Source of the DNA: Escherichia coli
GTDB taxonomy: Bacteria > Pseudomonadota > Gammaproteobacteria > Enterobacterales > Enterobacteriaceae
DNA length: 64,000 nucleotides
NCBI RefSeq assembly: GCF_022846255.1
Contig: NZ_AP025682.1
Strand: one strand, 5' to 3'
Shown piece after piece: positions 7,435 to 16,224 of the stretch. Within the stretch, counting starts at the first letter, position 1, and every line of letters starts with the position of its first letter. Below the pieces are notes generated by a model. It was not told where the DNA came from and did not search any database. It saw nothing but the letters and a program-made list of their open reading frames with translations. Made by a program: the position numbers and the translations under genes.

Positions 7435-7585
7435 TCACTCTGCCAGATGGCGCAATGCCATCTGGTATCACTTAAAGGTATTAAAAACAACTTTTTGTCT
7501 TTTTACCTTCCCGTTTCGCTAAAGTTAGTATAAAAAAGCAGGCTTCAACGGATTCATTTTTCTATTTCATAGCCCGGAGCAACCT

Positions 7586-8869
7586 GTGAACACATTTTCA
7601 GTTTCCCGTCTGGCGCTGGCATTGGCTTTTGGCGTGACGCTGACCGCCTGTAGCTCAACACCGCCCGATCAACGTCCTTCTGATCAAACCGCGCCTGGTA
7701 CCTCTTCTCGCCCGATTCTGTCGGCAAAAGAAGCGCAGAATTTCGATGCTCAACACTATTTTGCATCCCTGACACCAGGTGCGGCAGCGTGGAATCCTTC
7801 CCCGATTACCCTGCCTGCGCAACCTGACTTTGTTGTCGGCCCGGCGGGTACTCAAGGTGTAACGCATACCACGATTCAGGCGGCGGTAGATGCGGCAATT
7901 ATCAAGCGTACCAACAAGCGCCAGTATATTGCCGTGATGCCTGGTGAGTATCAGGGAACGGTATATGTCCCTGCCGCTCCGGGTGGAATTACTCTGTACG
8001 GTACAGGTGAAAAACCGATTGATGTGAAGATTGGGCTTTCCCTTGATGGGGGCATGAGCCCTGCCGACTGGCGTCACGACGTCAACCCGCGCGGCAAATA
8101 TATGCCAGGTAAACCAGCGTGGTATATGTACGATAGCTGCCAGAGCAAACGCAGCGACAGTATCGGCGTTCTCTGCTCTGCGGTCTTCTGGTCACAAAAC
8201 AATGGACTGCAACTGCAAAACCTGACCATCGAAAACACGCTGGGCGATAGCGTAGATGCGGGTAACCATCCGGCGGTGGCACTGCGTACTGATGGTGACC
8301 AGGTACAGATTAACAACGTTAACATTCTCGGTCGTCAGAACACCTTCTTTGTCACCAACAGCGGTGTGCAGAACCGTCTGGAAACGAATCGTCAGCCGCG
8401 TACGCTGGTGACCAACAGCTACATTGAAGGGGATGTGGATATCGTTTCTGGTCGCGGCGCAGTGGTGTTCGATAACACCGAATTCCGCGTGGTGAACTCC
8501 CGTACCCAGCAAGAAGCGTATGTGTTTGCACCGGCTACGCTGTCCAACATTTACTACGGTTTCCTCGCCGTAAACAGCCGTTTCAATGCTTCCGGTGATG
8601 GCGTGGCGCAACTGGGCCGCTCGCTGGATGTTGATGCCAATACCAACGGTCAGGTAGTGATCCGTGATAGCGCCATCAACGAAGGTTTTAACACGGCCAA
8701 ACCGTGGGCCGATGCGGTGATCTCAAATCGTCCGTTTGCGGGTAACACCGGCAGCGTTGATGATAAAGACGAAATACAGCGCAATCTGAATGACACTAAC
8801 TACAACCGCATGTGGGAATACAATAACCGCGGCGTGGGTAGCAAAGTGGTTGCAGAGGCGAAGAAGTAG
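7586..8869 (+). CDS. ybhC: Outer-membrane lipoprotein, pectinesterase-like / acyl-CoA thioesterase family
   Basis: 427 aa; signal peptide with lipobox LTAC; beta-helix-like Asn/Gly-rich repeats. Confidence 0.85.
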   Translation: MNTFSVSRLALALAFGVTLTACSSTPPDQRPSDQTAPGTSSRPILSAKEAQNFDAQHYFASLTPGAAAWNPSPITLPAQPDFVVGPAGTQGVTHTTIQAAVDAAIIKRTNKRQYIAVMPGEYQGTVYVPAAPGGITLYGTGEKPIDVKIGLSLDGGMSPADWRHDVNPRGKYMPGKPAWYMYDSCQSKRSDSIGVLCSAVFWSQNNGLQLQNLTIENTLGDSVDAGNHPAVALRTDGDQVQINNVNILGRQNTFFVTNSGVQNRLETNRQPRTLVTNSYIEGDVDIVSGRGAVVFDNTEFRVVNSRTQQEAYVFAPATLSNIYYGFLAVNSRFNASGDGVAQLGRSLDVDANTNGQVVIRDSAINEGFNTAKPWADAVISNRPFAGNTGSVDDKDEIQRNLNDTNYNRMWEYNNRGVGSKVVAEAKK

Positions 8870-8879
8870 GAGCTGTTAA

Positions 8880-8992
<113 letters not shown>

Positions 8993-9009
8993 CATTCACA
9001 TGGCGCTTT

Positions 9010-11271
9010 TTACATCTGACGGTTTTTATTGAAGTTAATCAAACTACCCGCCTTGATAATCTCGCGCTCTTCGGCCGTCAGGCTTTCCATATAGAGCGTG
9101 ATTTCCGTTACCGGCGCATCTTCATGGATCACATAACCTTTAAACGTCGTTCCAGGATTATCCAGCGCCGTTTTAATGCCAGGGATGTAAATGTAATCCC
9201 CCACTTCAAACGTTGGTGCTTCCGCCATTTGCAGCGGTAACATCCCCCAGTTGATGACGTTAGAACGGTAGCGTTTAGTCGCGTATTCCTCGGCAATATT
9301 CGCCAGACCGCCAATCACACGCTGGCAGCTCGCCGCCTGCTCACGCGCAGAACCATCGCCTGGTTTCACCGCATAGACCATGCTGCCAATTTCAGTTTGC
9401 AGCGGATCAATATGCTCCTGACCAGCAATCTGCTTAATGCGCGCAAACACCTCTGTCAGCTCGCTGACATTCCCCGCCAGACGCTGATTTTCCAGCTCAG
9501 CAGTCGCTTTACTTCTGCCAACATAACCGGGATCGCGGCGTGACAGGGTAAACTCCGCCAGACCAATCGGATTTGAACGATAAGAAGAGGTTTCACCGGA
9601 AGGAATCAGTTCGTCGGTGGTGGTGACTTCGTCGAGGATCTTCGAGCACACTTTGAGGACGATATTGTCAGTCAGCGCACCCAATTCCGGCCAGTCTTTG
9701 ATGTTCGGTCCGTAGATCAGCGGTTGCTGGGTCGCCCCTTTCACAAAGCCTTGATAGACGCGATTTTTATACGGCGTTACATCGAAGGCGTACTCCGGCA
9801 CGTTGTCCCAGCAATCGAGTTCGCTGGCAGAGGTTAAATAGCCACCGTTTGCCGCAGTCGCAGCGATAGAACGAGCGTCCATCAACGCCACCGCTGACAT
9901 CTGCCCATTAGCTGGCTTAGAGCCTTCGCGGTTCGGGAAGTTACGCGTGGTGTGGCGAATACTCAAACCGTTGTTGATTGGCGTATCGCCCGCGCCAAAG
10001 CATGGGCCGCAGAACGCGGTTCTGATGATTGCGCCTGCGCCAATCAAATCTGCTACCACACCTTTTTTGGCGAGATCCATAAACACCGGCTGTGATGACG
10101 GGTAAACCGCCAACGAGAAGGTATCGTTGCCGCAGGATTGACCGCGCAGCGCATTCGCCGCCGCGATGACGTTTTCGTAGTTACCGCCAGAACAGCCCGC
10201 GATAATCCCCTGCTGCACTTTCAGGCGACCATTTTCCACTTTATCCAGCAGCGAGAGTTTGGCTTTACCGTGCGCCACGCGTTCGGACTCAATTTCAATC
10301 TCACGCAGAATGTCGGTCAGATTCTGGTTCAGCGTGTCGATTTCATACACGTTGCTCGGGTGGAATGGCAGCGCAATCATTGGTTTGATGGCGCTTAAAT
10401 CAACACTGATGCAGCCATCGTAGTACGCCATTGGTTGAGGGTTAAGTTGGCAGTAATCCTGGCCGCGACCGTGCAGCGCCAGCCAGTTATGGACTTCTTC
10501 ATCGGTTTGCCAGACAGAACTTAAACAGGTCGTTTCAGTGGTCATCACGTCAACGCTGTTGCGGAAATCGGTAGAGAGCGCTGCAACACCGGGACCTACG
10601 AACTCCATCACTTTGTTTTTGACGTAACCGTTTTTGAACACGGCACCGATGATAGCCAGCGCCACATCCTGCGGCCCCACATACGGCGCAGGTTTTCCGG
10701 TCAGATGCACCGCAACCACGCCCGGATAGTCGATATCCCAGGTGTCATTAAGCAGTTGTTTTACCAGCTCGCCGCCGCCCTCACCGACTGCCATTGTCCC
10801 TAATGCGCCGTAACGGGTGTGGCTGTCTGATCCGAGGATCATTTTGCCGCCGCCAGCCATCATTTCACGCATATATTGATGGATGACCGCAATATGCGGT
10901 GGCACAAAAATACCGCCATAACGCTGGGCCGCCGATAAACCAAAAATATGGTCATCACCGTTAATGGTGCCGCCGACGGCGCAGAGTGAGTTATGGCAGT
11001 TGGTCAGCACATACGGCAGCGGGAAACGTTCCATACCGGACGCTTTAGCGGTCTGTACAATACCAACAAAGGTAATATCGTGAGAGGCTAATGAATCAAA
11101 CTTAATTTTAAGTTTATCCATATTACCAGACGTATTATGAGAAGAGAGAATAGACCAGGCAATAGTGCCTTTTTTTGCTTCTTCTTTTTTTATTTCGCCG
11201 GTGAAATGTTCTTCGGCAATTATTTCGTTATTGCTGGCGAGAAACACGCCTTTTTCAGATAACTTGATCAT
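9010..11271 (-). CDS. ybhJ: Aconitase-family hydratase
   Basis: ORF-track ORF 9010-11295 (761 aa); aconitase-like; start probably the internal Met MIKLSEK (753 aa). Confidence 0.85.
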
Positions 11272-11324
11272 CAAATGCTCCAGATATCTGCGCACCGTGA
11301 AGTGCGCAGAAAGATAATAAATGG

Positions 11325-11457
11325 ATATACTCTAAATAATTCGAGTTGCAGGAAGGCGACAAGCGAGTGAATCCCCAGGAGCTTACATAAGTAAGTGACT
11401 GGGGTGAGCGAACGCAGACGCAGCACATGCAACTTGAAGTATGACGAGTATATTTAC
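11325..11457. repeat. ERIC/IRU enterobacterial repetitive intergenic consensus element
   Basis: Contains gtgaatccccaggagcttacat (complement of ERIC1R primer) and aagtaagtgactggggtgagcg (ERIC2 primer) at 11367-11410; sits between ybhI and ybhJ. Confidence 0.85.
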
Positions 11458-12887
11458 AGCATGTTCCAGCCGATCAGCATATTCCACCACCACACGCCGA
11501 GGGTGATATGCACCAGGAAGGTTAATATCGTCAGTACCGCACCGACCAACCACCAGGATTTAATATCGTTGTAACCCACGCCAAAGATGACCGGACCTGC
11601 CGCGCCGCCATAGTGAGTAACCATGCCGCCATAGGAGTTAGAGAACAACAGTGCCAGCGCGGTTAACATTAACGGTGCGCCGGAGACGTTCGCCAGCATG
11701 GCAAACACAGGTAACATAGCAACGATATAGGCACTACCAGAAGCGAAGAAATAACGCACGATGATGCTGAGGAAAATAATAACGAAGAAAGCAACGTTCC
11801 CGTGACCATCAAATGCCAGGTTATTTTTAAAGACTTCAGCTAACCATTCGAAGAATTTAACTTTCGATAATAAGGAGCTTAAGCCGATAATACCGCCGTA
11901 CCAGATTAAGGTATTCCAGCCGCCTTTATTTTTAACCACGTCTTCCCAGGTAACGATACCCAGCAGCAGCATAGTTGCCATAACAACGATTGCCACGGTG
12001 GATTCATCAACCCCCAGAGACTTACTGAAAATCCAGCCCAGCAGCGCCAGCACAAAGACACCGAGCAGCATTTTTTCGCGGATTTTCATCGGTCCCAGTT
12101 CGGCAAGGCCCGCTTTAGCGATGGTTTTGTTATCCACCTTCTTAATTTCTGGTGGATACATGGTGTAAATCACCAGCGGGGTGACCAGCAGCATAATGAT
12201 GCCCGGCAATCCGGCGGCTAGCGCCCATCCACCCCAGCTAATTTGCAGGTGCAGAATGTCGTTGATCATTTTCAGCGCCAGAATGTTCCCCGCCATTGCG
12301 GTAAAGAACATATAGCTGGTGGTTTTAGTGACCATGTAAATGGACATCATCAGGTAATGTCCAACACGACGCGGACTTTTTTCCGGTTCTGATCCCAAAG
12401 CCACTGCCACGCTGTTGATGATCGGTAACACGATGCCGCCCGCACGCGCGGTGTTAGACGGTGTTGCCGGAGCCAGTACCAGATCGAGAAATACCGTAAC
12501 GTAACCCAGACCCAGGGTAGTGCTACCAATTTTACCAATCAGCAGATAGGCAATACGTTTACCTAAGCCTGTGGTTACAAACGCGGCGCTTAAAGTAAAC
12601 GCAGAAAACACCAGCCAGGTGGTACCGGAAGAGTAACCGCTTAATACGGCGGTGGTTTTAAATTCCCCACCTGATAAGTTACCCACCACGACCATCGATG
12701 CGGCGACGGCAATTAACAGTACGACAGGTTCCGGGAAAGGCTTGATAACCAGCCCCACAATGGCCGCCAGGTAAATACCAAAAAGCACCCACGCCAGTTC
12801 GCTTAATCCTGCCGGAGCTGGCATAAAGCCAATAATACATGGGATCGCTAATATCAGAATTAGCTTCCATAACGATTTTTTATTCAT
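11454..12887 (-). CDS. ybhI: Putative anion/tricarboxylate transporter (DASS/CitT-like permease)
   Basis: 477 aa highly hydrophobic polytopic ORF; gene order ybhH-ybhI-ybhJ. Confidence 0.85.
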   Translation of the reverse strand: MNKKSLWKLILILAIPCIIGFMPAPAGLSELAWVLFGIYLAAIVGLVIKPFPEPVVLLIAVAASMVVVGNLSGGEFKTTAVLSGYSSGTTWLVFSAFTLSAAFVTTGLGKRIAYLLIGKIGSTTLGLGYVTVFLDLVLAPATPSNTARAGGIVLPIINSVAVALGSEPEKSPRRVGHYLMMSIYMVTKTTSYMFFTAMAGNILALKMINDILHLQISWGGWALAAGLPGIIMLLVTPLVIYTMYPPEIKKVDNKTIAKAGLAELGPMKIREKMLLGVFVLALLGWIFSKSLGVDESTVAIVVMATMLLLGIVTWEDVVKNKGGWNTLIWYGGIIGLSSLLSKVKFFEWLAEVFKNNLAFDGHGNVAFFVIIFLSIIVRYFFASGSAYIVAMLPVFAMLANVSGAPLMLTALALLFSNSYGGMVTHYGGAAGPVIFGVGYNDIKSWWLVGAVLTILTFLVHITLGVWWWNMLIGWNML

Positions 12888-12962
12888 TTAATATCCTGTT
12901 CTTTCTGTATGACTCATACAGAATTCCTTTATTGATTGTCATTATCACGACAACAAAATTTT

Positions 12963-14015
12963 TCAGGGAAGATAAACTTCACCGGAAAATATTTTTCTTG
13001 TCGTCCGAATAACAGATGCGCGTAACGTCGTGGCATCCTGACCTTCATTACTTAAATGAACGTCGAGCGCACCACTGGGGTGTTCAATATTGATATTGCC
13101 GTATCCTACAGAAGGGACGATTTGTCGGGTGACGGTACCTTCCAATGCACAACTACTGGAAATAGCAATAGCACCGGTTATCGCCAAAGCGCGATGGCAA
13201 GAATGCGGCATAAAATAACGCACATTAATTGCCCCGCCTTTCTGCGCTGGAGAAATAAGTACAGGTTTAGGGATAACCATATTACTGACATCGCCTAAGC
13301 CCATTGCTTTACCCGCTTGTAGACGGATAGATTCAATGCGGGCTAATAATGCTTTGTCGGCATCCAGCTCTGCCGGTAATTCATAGCCTGTTTTTCCCAG
13401 ATATTCAGCAGGAATAATGACAACTGGCATCGCCATATCGATACAGGTCACCGGGACATCGTCAAAATAATCAATCTGATTATCCGTCGGGAAGACTTTT
13501 CCGGTTTTCGTTCCGGCGGCATTCAGGAAAGTGAGCGCAACCGGTGCGGCAGTACCCGGTACGCCGTCAATTCTGGCGCTACCCTCGTACTCGACAACAC
13601 CATTTGGCGTTTGCACATCAGCTTCGATAAACGTACCCGTATTGACGTTGCGGATACGTACGCGGGTAACTGGCGAAGTCGCTGCAATCAAACCATTTTC
13701 AATGGCGAATGCCCCAACGCCAGACAGCATATTGCCGCAGTTAGGCGTGGTATCGACACGTTGCTCATGGACGATAACTTGAGCAAACAGATAATCGACA
13801 TCTGCACGCGGATCGCTGGAGCGGCTAATAATGGCGACTTTACTGGTCAGCGGATTACCGCCGCCAATACCGTCAATTTCCAGATCGTTACCGGAACCCA
13901 TAATTGCCATCAATATTTTATCGCGCTGCGTTTGATCTTCGGGTAGATGTTCCGCTAACAGGAACGCGCCCCTCGAGGTTCCACCTCGCATCATCACGCA
14001 GGGTATTTTTTTCAT
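12963..14015 (-). CDS. ybhH: PrpF-family (methylaconitate isomerase-like) protein
   Basis: 350 aa ORF; PrpF/AcnD-accessory-like sequence; first gene of ybhHIJ. Confidence 0.85.
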   Translation of the reverse strand: MKKIPCVMMRGGTSRGAFLLAEHLPEDQTQRDKILMAIMGSGNDLEIDGIGGGNPLTSKVAIISRSSDPRADVDYLFAQVIVHEQRVDTTPNCGNMLSGVGAFAIENGLIAATSPVTRVRIRNVNTGTFIEADVQTPNGVVEYEGSARIDGVPGTAAPVALTFLNAAGTKTGKVFPTDNQIDYFDDVPVTCIDMAMPVVIIPAEYLGKTGYELPAELDADKALLARIESIRLQAGKAMGLGDVSNMVIPKPVLISPAQKGGAINVRYFMPHSCHRALAITGAIAISSSCALEGTVTRQIVPSVGYGNINIEHPSGALDVHLSNEGQDATTLRASVIRTTRKIFSGEVYLP

Positions 14016-14137
14016 AATAATGCCCTCAATTTAAAAACATAACTTATTGCGATATGGTTACATTAAGGGCAAAGCATCTCTAATGACTTTAGCTCAACGA
14101 TTAATAACATTTTTTCATTAATTTAAGTTGGCTAAAT

Positions 14138-14158
14138 GCAGTTAAAATTTTTAACTGC
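14138..14158. promoter_or_regulatory. Perfect 21 bp palindrome in ybhD/ybhH divergent promoter (candidate LysR-type operator)
   Basis: gcagttaaaa-t-ttttaactgc read directly from sequence; lies 40 bp upstream of the likely ybhD start. Confidence 0.5.
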
Positions 14159-14198
14159 CAGTCACCCAAAATCGTCGCTTCCATTTTCCGGAGTAATA

Positions 14199-15152
14199 AT
14201 GAAGCATGAATTATCAAGTATGAAGGCATTTGTCATACTGGCAGAGTCCAGTTCATTTAACAATGCCGCTAAATTACTCAATATTACGCAACCTGCATTA
14301 ACGCGAAGAATAAAAAAGATGGAGGAAGATTTACATATTCAACTATTTGAGCGTACAACTCGCAAGGTTACGTTAACAAAAGCAGGAAAAAGGTTGCTCC
14401 CGGAGGCGCGGGAATTAATAAAGAAATTCGATGAAACGCTTTTTAATATTCGTGATATGAATGCTTATCATCGTGGTATGGTGACGTTAGCGTGTATTCC
14501 GACCGCAGTATTTTATTTTTTACCGCTGGCAATCGGTAAATTTAATGAGCTGTATCCCAATATTAAAGTGCGGATTCTGGAACAAGGCACGAATAATTGC
14601 ATGGAATCGGTGCTGTGTAACGAATCAGACTTTGGCATAAACATGAACAACGTCACAAATTCATCCATTGATTTTACCCCACTGGTCAACGAGCCGTTCG
14701 TGCTGGCCTGTCGGCGTGACCATCCATTGGCCAAAAAGCAGCTTGTAGAATGGCAGGAGTTAGTGGGTTACAAAATGATTGGCGTACGCTCCTCCAGCGG
14801 CAACCGACTGTTGATAGAACAACAGCTAGCCGACAAGCCCTGGAAGCTGGACTGGTTTTACGAAGTGCGTCATCTTTCGACGTCATTAGGGCTGGTGGAG
14901 GCGGGACTGGGGATTTCGGCGCTTCCTGGTCTGGCAATGCCCCATGCGCCCTATTCTTCGATTATTGGTATCCCGCTGGTGGAACCGGTTATACGTCGGA
15001 CATTGGGGATTATTCGCCGCAAAGATGCCGTGCTTTCTCCGGCAGCTGAACGCTTTTTTGCCTTGCTGATTAATTTGTGGACTGACGATAAAGACAATTT
15101 GTGGACCAATATCGTCGAACGCCAGAGACATGCGTTACAGGAGATAGGTTAA
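14199..15152 (+). CDS. ybhD: LysR-type transcriptional regulator
   Basis: ORF-track ORF 14136-15152; start trimmed to MKHELSSMKAFVILAESSSFNNAAKLLNITQPALTRRIKKME (HTH of LTTR family). Confidence 0.85.
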   Translation: MKHELSSMKAFVILAESSSFNNAAKLLNITQPALTRRIKKMEEDLHIQLFERTTRKVTLTKAGKRLLPEARELIKKFDETLFNIRDMNAYHRGMVTLACIPTAVFYFLPLAIGKFNELYPNIKVRILEQGTNNCMESVLCNESDFGINMNNVTNSSIDFTPLVNEPFVLACRRDHPLAKKQLVEWQELVGYKMIGVRSSSGNRLLIEQQLADKPWKLDWFYEVRHLSTSLGLVEAGLGISALPGLAMPHAPYSSIIGIPLVEPVIRRTLGIIRRKDAVLSPAAERFFALLINLWTDDKDNLWTNIVERQRHALQEIG

Positions 15153-15192
15153 TACACCGGCGCAGAAGAGACTGCGCCAGGTAAATCAGCGG

Positions 15193-16224
<1,032 letters not shown>

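Follow-up and report, generated by a model that had tools for sequence, protein, structure and literature searches.

A trans-aconitate assimilation system, TarR/TarA/TarB, was defined in Bacillus velezensis FZB42 by Zheng et al. 2024 (PMC11495376). In this system a LysR-type regulator is divergent from the gene for a PrpF-superfamily isomerase, a carboxylate transporter follows, and a single isomerisation feeds a central metabolite. The ybhD/ybhH-ybhI-ybhJ cluster of Escherichia coli, at positions 9010-15152 of the 64,000-nucleotide stretch of contig NZ_AP025682.1 (assembly GCF_022846255.1) analysed here and hereafter called the window, has a similar layout. Its transporter, YbhI, belongs to the DASS family, whereas TarB is an MFS importer; E. 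coli adds a dedicated iron-sulfur (Fe-S) aconitase, YbhJ; and TarR activates, whereas YbhD has been seen as a repressor. Given the different transporter family, the added aconitase and the apparent repression, we regard the E. coli module as a variant relative to the Tar system. The YbhH-like enzymes of Pseudomonas are about 38-41% identical to TarA (PMC11495376 table). On the sequence evidence assembled below, we consider the chances roughly even that the cluster serves specifically for the use of trans-aconitate, or of an aconitate isomer very close to it.

Other described systems resemble parts of the cluster. In modules of Pseudomonas and Dickeya (loci L090-L093) both genes of the regulator-isomerase pair seem to be orthologues of the E. 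coli ones, at 54-60% identity for the regulator and 62-63% for the isomerase, and the divergent layout is shared, whereas the partner genes are others and the flanks examined hold no YbhJ-type aconitase. LigU/GalD (PDB 6P3H/J/K; NF033377) has the fold of YbhH, its Lys/Cys pair and about 50% identity to it, and YbhH scores above the cut-off of that model; in the genomes examined, however, YbhH stands without gallate or protocatechuate 4,5-cleavage genes nearby, and the YbhH-like clade contains aconitate-active enzymes. The 2-methylcitrate cycle likewise combines a PrpF-superfamily isomerase with an aconitase-family Fe-S enzyme, AcnD, on aconitate-type substrates (PMC5690661), but YbhH (187 against 440 bits) and YbhJ (63.5 against 1420) fall under the respective cut-offs, YbhJ by far, and prpB and prpC are not among the neighbours. 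From the CitT-citCDEFXG system of citrate fermentation, YbhI has 33% identity to CitT, and citrate lyase genes are found beside YbhJ- and PrpF-like genes in Firmicutes and beside a YbhH-like gene in Dickeya. In E. coli the cit locus presumably lies about 150 kb from the ybh cluster, going by the K-12 map, and we infer a functional link between the two.

The cluster holds four intact genes, named as in annotated E. coli genomes:

9010-11271, minus strand: ybhJ, aconitase-family [4Fe-4S] hydratase, 753 amino acids (NF008503, 1540 bits, aligned over 1-753 of 753)
11454-12887, minus strand: ybhI, DASS-family anion transporter, 477 amino acids (TIGR00785)
12963-14015, minus strand: ybhH, PrpF-superfamily isomerase, 350 amino acids (100% identical to PDB 6OTV)
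14199-15152, plus strand: ybhD, LysR-type regulator, 317 amino acids, divergent from ybhH

The starts of ybhJ (ATG at 11271) and ybhD (ATG at 14199) were set by model alignments. The mechanical open reading frames are longer, running from 9010 out to a GTG at 11295 for ybhJ and over 14136-15152 (338 amino acids) for ybhD, and the LysR-family matches to the 338-residue frame all begin at residue 22-30. A preliminary description of this DNA had listed these four genes and their families, and at the superfamily level (Aconitase/Aconitase_C, DASS, PrpF superfamily, LysR) this was confirmed, as was the divergence of ybhD from ybhH; the spacer between these two genes measures 183 bp and contains a conserved T-N11-A dyad. 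The other three genes had been called an operon. We treat them as a candidate operon, of which ybhJ may or may not be part; the gaps are 75 bp between ybhH and ybhI and 182 bp between ybhI and ybhJ, the latter with a repeat element.

The prediction of a substrate begins with YbhH. Its earlier placement in the PrpF family holds for the superfamily (Pfam PF04303 is listed for its orthologues) and fails for the curated model of the PrpF 2-methylaconitate isomerase, TIGR02334, against which it scores 186.9 bits with a cut-off of 440.55. Among PDB proteins other than itself, YbhH matches (4E)-oxalomesaconate delta-isomerase best (E 3e-93 with 347 residues aligned; identity about 50%, estimated by eye), and its Lys59 and Cys93 align with the conserved Lys and Cys of this 6P3H-type enzyme (6P3J chain). 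We take the pair to be catalytic, as in LigU.

The nearest non-enteric relatives, at 61-64% identity, are in Pseudomonas, Dickeya and Azotobacter; with the Pseudomonas protein P0368, YbhH is 63% identical over the full length. Measured activities exist for enzymes that appear to belong to this clade. From bacteria that had been isolated on trans-aconitate, Zheng and colleagues tested 16 homologues of TarA (PMC11495376). The enzymes AI-7-1, 16-1, 32-1 and 41-1, from four Pseudomonas strains, gave 88-101% of TarA forward activity in vitro (PMC11495376, Table S4), the second homologue of the same four strains gave 2-4% of TarA activity, and five enzymes with PrpF-type termini (...VPGDSF or ...VPGDAF) gave just 2-8% forward activity. 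As read from the primers of that study, the N-terminus of the active Pseudomonas enzymes is M(G)QRIPCV and their C-terminus FRRLAG, AQRLAG or LRRLAG; the weak enzymes have MAHxPQ or MAFVAQ at the N-terminus and VPGDSF at the C-terminus. The YbhH-like Pseudomonas proteins have the N-terminus MQRIPCVLMRGG and the C-terminus ...TFRRLAG, ...ARRLAG or ...SQRLAG. Since these termini match those of the active enzymes, the closest clade to enteric YbhH is very probably made up of true aconitate isomerases.

The genes around these relatives point towards citrate-type acids. In Pseudomonas the YbhH-like gene has a divergent LysR gene and is followed by a DctA-type carrier, a carrier of the CitMHS citrate:H+ symporter family (657 bits) and an OprD porin; in Dickeya dadantii, again with a divergent LysR gene, it precedes genes for an MFS carrier and an FAH-family enzyme, then citC-citD-citE-citF. 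Loci from E. coli, Salmonella, Edwardsiella, Klebsiella, Dickeya and Pseudomonas were examined over 8-10 kb around YbhH or its 61-85% relatives, and we found no genes for a dioxygenase, OMA hydratase or CHA aldolase; in E. coli there are no prp genes near ybhH. The citrate-type partners and the lack of gallate-pathway genes make the NCBI product name "4-oxalomesaconate tautomerase" doubtful, and it is probably wrong for YbhH and its clade. A PrpF-domain gene that stands with a DMT exporter on a B. thuringiensis plasmid, and is a probable TbrA orthologue, encodes a protein 40% identical to YbhH. Comparison of the Firmicute PrpF-like gene with the B. thuringiensis TbrA-like protein gave 32% identity, which does not discriminate.

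YbhJ carries the Aconitase (PF00330, 1.5e-87) and Aconitase_C (PF00694, 5e-06) domains. It has its own NCBIfam model, NF008503, named only "hydratase", and lies below the cut-off of every named aconitase equivalog (NF005558, 343.7 against 612; TIGR01340, 119.6 against 825; AcnD, 63.5 against 1420). When YbhJ was aligned to pig aconitase, as a single sequence first and by family profile second, most of the active site could be traced: Cys358/421/424, His101, His147, Asp165-Ser166-His167, Glu262, Arg447, Arg452, Asp568, Arg580, Ser642 and Arg644 are kept. All of these are invariant across the YbhJ family, among them, in YbhJ numbering, C360, C421, C424, S641, H93, D149, H151, R443, R448, R565 and R643. 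The Asp568/Arg580 region aligns with TTDHISAAGPWLKFR of pig aconitase, and the equivalent of Arg580, the residue that in aconitase binds the third carboxylate of citrate and isocitrate, is R565. Two metagenomic relatives, P0148 and P0154 (37-39% identity, full length), have lost the Fe-S cysteines and the DSHT motif and are apparently non-catalytic.

A profile scan over one genome per GTDB species placed YbhJ relatives at 596 sites at least, and gene neighbourhoods were clustered for the best 80 loci of these matches. Among the matches listed, enteric proteins are 81-97% identical to YbhJ; the next, at 66-73%, come from Lachnospiraceae, Enterocloster, Hungatella, Clostridium, Collinsella, Megasphaera and Synergistales. 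In a neighbour-joining tree the enteric clade is the sister of the anaerobe clade and is not nested in it; transfer between phyla is evident, its direction not settled by the tree. Citrate synthase adjoins a 66-73% YbhJ relative in 13 of the best 80 loci and isocitrate dehydrogenase in 12, in the order YbhJ, citrate synthase, isocitrate dehydrogenase. These genes mostly share a strand and are separated by tens of bases, and a divergent LysR gene is frequent. An operon of this composition implies that the YbhJ type is a working aconitase, and in many gut Firmicutes the protein appears, from gene order, to be the aconitase of a citrate synthase-isocitrate dehydrogenase operon. This partnership of ybhJ is not found in E. 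coli. Citrate lyase genes accompany YbhJ in eight of the best 80 loci (citD-citE-citF-citG-citC where the contig is long enough); in four of these eight a PrpF-like gene adjoins YbhJ, in most cases together with a CitMHS/MatC carrier. The fullest arrangement, as in Lacrimispora amygdalina (L019), comprises LysR, a CitMHS/MatC carrier, a PrpF-like isomerase and YbhJ, then the citrate lyase genes. Such loci are what one would expect of a route from aconitate through citrate to acetate and oxaloacetate.

Further arrangements of YbhJ-type genes were seen in the same survey. The YbhJ-type gene leads a tight citrate synthase-isocitrate dehydrogenase operon in L020, L022, L024, L029, L030, L046, L049 and other loci of gut Firmicutes, and a PRK07229-type aconitase of 650 amino acids adjoins it in L028, L054, L056 and L057. 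The metagenomic locus L008 has a LysR gene and, divergent from it, Iso_dh, PrpF and YbhJ-like (42%) genes, with two further aconitase-family genes on the opposite side. In Collinsella YbhJ stands alone between heat-shock genes. The other neighbours that recur in anaerobes (AAA-type, chromate-transporter-like, transglycosylase, hemerythrin, and the heat-shock genes of Collinsella) gave no functional signal.

YbhI matches the DASS model TIGR00785 with 553.5 bits (cut-off 198.6, aligned over 1-444 of 444), and its 33% identity to the citrate:succinate antiporter CitT extends over the full length (E 4e-83). We propose that it is a tricarboxylate importer or antiporter. Antisense to ybhI, at 12171-12422 on the plus strand, lies a sub-threshold match to the Yersinia antisense RNA Ysr283 (44 bits against a gathering score of 58, E 7.6e-10), which may just mirror coding conservation of ybhI.

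Control by YbhD has been documented. Rodionova et al. 2022 (PMC9068703) found a YbhD site at ybhH/ybhI by chromatin immunoprecipitation with exonuclease digestion (ChIP-exo) and a strong increase of ybhH expression in a ybhD deletion. The preliminary description had the operon induced via YbhD; control by YbhD holds, while the published sense, in the conditions tested, is repression of ybhH (PMC9068703). Full-length YbhD is 54% (Pseudomonas) and 60% (Dickeya) identical to the LysR proteins encoded divergently from YbhH-like genes. This identity, together with the divergent layout, suggests that the regulator-isomerase pair is a conserved unit whose transport and downstream genes are interchangeable. 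The ybhD-ybhH spacer contains one candidate operator:

14099-14122, no strand assigned: candidate YbhD site, dyad ATTAAT-N11-ATTAAT (core T-N11-A), located 84-107 bp upstream of the start of ybhH

A T-N11-A core is typical of LysR sites, and this dyad is the best-conserved block of the spacer among eight sequences from Escherichia, Citrobacter, Salmonella, Edwardsiella and Klebsiella.

The presence and conservation of the genes are established here, and binding and repression by YbhD are published (PMC9068703); beyond this, we propose the following route. YbhD would bind the ATTAAT-N11-ATTAAT dyad and keep ybhH, and perhaps ybhI, off until the imported acid acts as inducer and relieves the repression. 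YbhI would import the tricarboxylate, possibly in exchange for a C4-dicarboxylate. YbhH, by analogy with its active homologues, would shift the double bond by Lys/Cys acid-base catalysis and turn trans-aconitate into cis-aconitate, which YbhJ, an Fe-S aconitase of the gut-anaerobe type, would convert to citrate or isocitrate. The product could pass to citrate lyase (citCDEFXG) anaerobically, or to isocitrate dehydrogenase and the tricarboxylic acid cycle.

Several observations weigh against trans-aconitate as the substrate. YbhH scores 515.2 bits against NF033377, the 4-oxalomesaconate tautomerase model, above the cut-off of 440. The link between its clade and the active enzymes consists of eight N-terminal and six C-terminal residues taken from primers, as opposed to full sequences. 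The Providencia rettgeri enzyme AI-79, whose C-terminus, GDVYVP, is of the enteric type (GEVYLP in E. coli YbhH), showed less than 1% activity (0.67% and 0.35%; PMC11495376). Its construct starts at MRGGTSK, the equivalent of Met9 of YbhH, and lacks the first eight residues, that is, the first strand; this N-terminal shortening may or may not be the cause of the inactivity. Three residues of YbhJ are not those of classical aconitase (Asp100 is replaced by Cys, Gln72 by His and Ser643 by Ala). Beside AcnA and AcnB there seems to be little need for a dedicated aconitase, and ybhJ has been termed a catalytically inactive aconitase paralogue in a paper citing Blank et al. 2002 (PMC4054840). The Rodionova study cites control by Nac and describes a growth phenotype of the ybhD mutant upon addition of L-malate; its conclusion goes only as far as "L-malate utilisation related" (PMC9068703). 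YbhI also resembles oxoglutarate/malate translocators. The Nac control, the L-malate phenotype and the redundancy of YbhJ with AcnA and AcnB are not accounted for by the proposed route; malate/succinate exchange by YbhI and anaerobic use would be speculative answers. The preliminary description had called the substrate not established, and this was borne out: our full-text literature search gave no assignment and no trans-aconitate induction, growth or enzyme data for E. coli, and a search for fitness or genetic data tying the YbhH-like clade to trans-aconitate returned nothing.

All four genes are under strong purifying selection. Ratios of nonsynonymous to synonymous substitution (dN/dS) against E. 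albertii, Citrobacter and Salmonella are 0.02-0.08 throughout (0.03-0.05 for ybhJ, 0.02-0.03 for ybhI), the same range as for pgl and ybhC, which speaks against a decaying or purely cryptic locus. The ybhD/ybhHIJ cassette is retained across five genera, and at least 80% of the cluster was found in 5,315 of 5,426 complete E. coli genomes (98%), with 111 below 80% coverage. In Klebsiella and Edwardsiella it occupies chromosomal sites other than that of E. coli, and in Klebsiella aerogenes it has an extra CitMHS carrier and lies beside citAB-oadGAB-citS-citC, the citrate-fermentation locus.

The alternatives differ mainly in what they make of the two enzymes. YbhH might shift the double bond, and YbhJ hydrate the product, of another unsaturated tri- or dicarboxylate, such as 2-methylaconitate, homoaconitate, itaconate/citraconate or mesaconate. 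Isomerase followed by hydratase is the known order in the pairings PrpF/AcnD and 3-methylitaconate isomerase/dimethylmaleate hydratase, and 3-methylitaconate isomerase is the second-best distinct PDB protein for YbhH (E 1.7e-67). A different acid would also suit the separate NCBIfam family of YbhJ, under all named aconitase cut-offs, its three altered active-site positions, the L-malate-dependent phenotype of the ybhD mutant with the likeness of YbhI to oxoglutarate/malate translocators, and locus L008, which adds an Iso_dh-family dehydrogenase to the PrpF and YbhJ-like pair. Yet YbhJ retains the Arg580 equivalent, specific for the third carboxylate of citrate and isocitrate, and its close orthologues stand with citrate synthase, isocitrate dehydrogenase or citrate lyase; the loci examined contain no methylcitrate, itaconate-CoA or dimethylmalate lyase genes; and YbhH is far under the PrpF cut-off, in a clade that includes aconitate-active enzymes. 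On balance we think another acid unlikely. The preliminary description had proposed uptake and conversion of an aconitate- or itaconate-like tricarboxylate: the isomerase clade, the regulators, the partner genes and the YbhJ arginine uphold the aconitate-like half, and itaconate is disfavoured. That YbhH is a true 4-oxalomesaconate tautomerase/delta-isomerase, handling a gallate or protocatechuate ring-cleavage product from the gut with YbhJ in place of the usual hydratase, seems to us highly improbable. The NF033377 score (515 against 440) and the best non-self PDB match, with Lys and Cys aligned, are what this explanation would lead one to expect, and its substrate is chemically like aconitate and homoaconitate (formally it is 4-oxo-homoaconitate). 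The examined loci of six genera, however, are devoid of dioxygenase, OMA hydratase and CHA aldolase genes, the partners found are citrate-family carriers and citrate lyase, and the assayed clade members isomerise aconitate. Ring-cleavage products, moreover, require oxygen-dependent dioxygenases and are not known to occur free among gut metabolites.

A catabolic role might also be absent from present-day E. coli, with YbhJ an inactive paralogue of regulatory or stress function and the cassette mostly silent. Besides the description of ybhJ as inactive, its deletion makes cells sensitive to H2O2 and lowers NADPH (PMC4054840), and the gene is among oxidative-stress-related hits (PMC10645362). Further, E. 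coli W3110 requires a foreign aconitate isomerase for trans-aconitate production, and some strains have insertion sequences at ybhI. Against this stand the retention of all catalytic and cluster-binding residues, lost in the degenerate P0148 and P0154, the dN/dS values, equal to those of neighbouring housekeeping genes, and the presence of the cassette in 98% of complete E. coli genomes and in five genera. Inactivation of ybhJ reportedly left the residual aconitase activity of an acnAB mutant unchanged, as would be expected if the gene is repressed; inactivity in uninduced cells is what a repressed operon should show. We regard the loss of a catabolic role as distinctly improbable, and leave the remainder to something not considered. 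The aconitate module is the reading with the best support.

The spacers contain further elements:

14138-14158, no strand assigned: perfect 10+10 palindrome, GCAGTTAAAA-T-TTTTAACTGC, upstream of the ybhD start
11287-11310, minus strand: stem-loop with a 10-bp stem and no U-tract, immediately 5' of the ybhJ Shine-Dalgarno sequence (-19 kcal/mol, z = -3.6 against shuffles)
11325-11453, no strand assigned: multi-copy intergenic repeat of about 129 bp, inserted in the ybhI-ybhJ spacer

The palindrome was considered as an operator and is probably not the core one, as its conservation is limited to E. coli and, in part, E. albertii. The stem at 11287-11310 is kept in Citrobacter through compensatory changes and could be a processing, translational-control or protein-binding site. 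Across 5,425 E. coli genomes the repeat has a median of five places in each. Among the aligned genera, it occurs in E. coli and E. albertii and is absent from Citrobacter, Salmonella and Edwardsiella; it gives a sub-threshold match to Rfam V_AS5 (46.9 bits), and we take it to resemble ERIC/IRU. Between the convergent ybhC and ybhJ lie two sub-threshold matches to naRNA4, a REP-derived nucleoid-associated RNA (8875-8916 and 8938-8990, minus strand), which are probably REP elements. Promoter and terminator scans of 8800-15300 gave sites no more numerous than in shuffled sequence.

The cluster had also been called AT-rich and possibly an older acquisition. Its GC content is indeed lower (48.6% against 51.3% for the window), but this is the 11th percentile among same-size windows, too weak a sign of acquisition, and we dropped the argument. 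The low GC is confined to ybhD (45%), ybhH (49%, with 44% at third codon positions, GC3) and the spacers (28-32%), and GC3 of ybhJ and ybhI (0.57) is similar to that of pgl and modC. Mobility of the cassette is better argued from its differing sites in Klebsiella and Edwardsiella and from the likeness of YbhJ to proteins of Firmicutes, Actinobacteria and Synergistetes.

The window as a whole comes from the 17-18 min region of the E. coli chromosome, with uvrB-bio, ybhB, ybhC, ybhJIH/ybhD, pgl, mod, gal, tol-pal, cyd, suc-sdh and gltA. Between ybhB and ybhC, at 7525-7539, the core of the phage lambda attB site, GCTTTTTTATACTAA, is present in single copy and unoccupied; strain 104 of E. coli carries a lambdoid prophage at the attB position, adjoining the cluster. 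IS1A and IS903B transposase genes were found inside the cluster match of NZ_CP195454.1 (H1) and NZ_CM142782.1 (H2), and the double annotation of the anion permease in H1 suggests an interruption of ybhI. Pieces of the window of 6-25 kb are nowhere more than about 99.3% identical to any of the 5,426 complete E. coli genomes, and just 3-120 genomes reach 99%; the source lineage seems sparsely sampled.

The genes themselves were already annotated, and the general idea put forward earlier was a reasonable one. New here are a substrate prediction tied to measured activities, the doubt cast on the NCBI name of YbhH, and the observation that gut anaerobes have YbhJ-type proteins as operon partners of citrate synthase, isocitrate dehydrogenase or citrate lyase. 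A bolder version, which we put forward only tentatively and think rather doubtful as a whole, would see in the cluster a core-genome enteric route that ferments dietary trans-aconitate by way of a CitT-like YbhI, a mislabelled aconitate isomerase, YbhH, and a gut-anaerobe-type aconitase, YbhJ, feeding citrate lyase, with the YbhJ type an unrecognised major class of working aconitase exchanged between phyla in the gut. If the aconitate module is real, it would provide a function for four conserved y-genes of the best-studied bacterium and add to the nutrients of E. coli a plant acid of the diet that is plentiful in grasses, maize and sugar cane. It would also correct the propagated name "4-oxalomesaconate tautomerase" for proteins of the Pseudomonas, Dickeya, Azotobacter and enteric clade, and would name the "hydratase" of YbhJ type, which the GTDB species genomes hold at 596 or more places.

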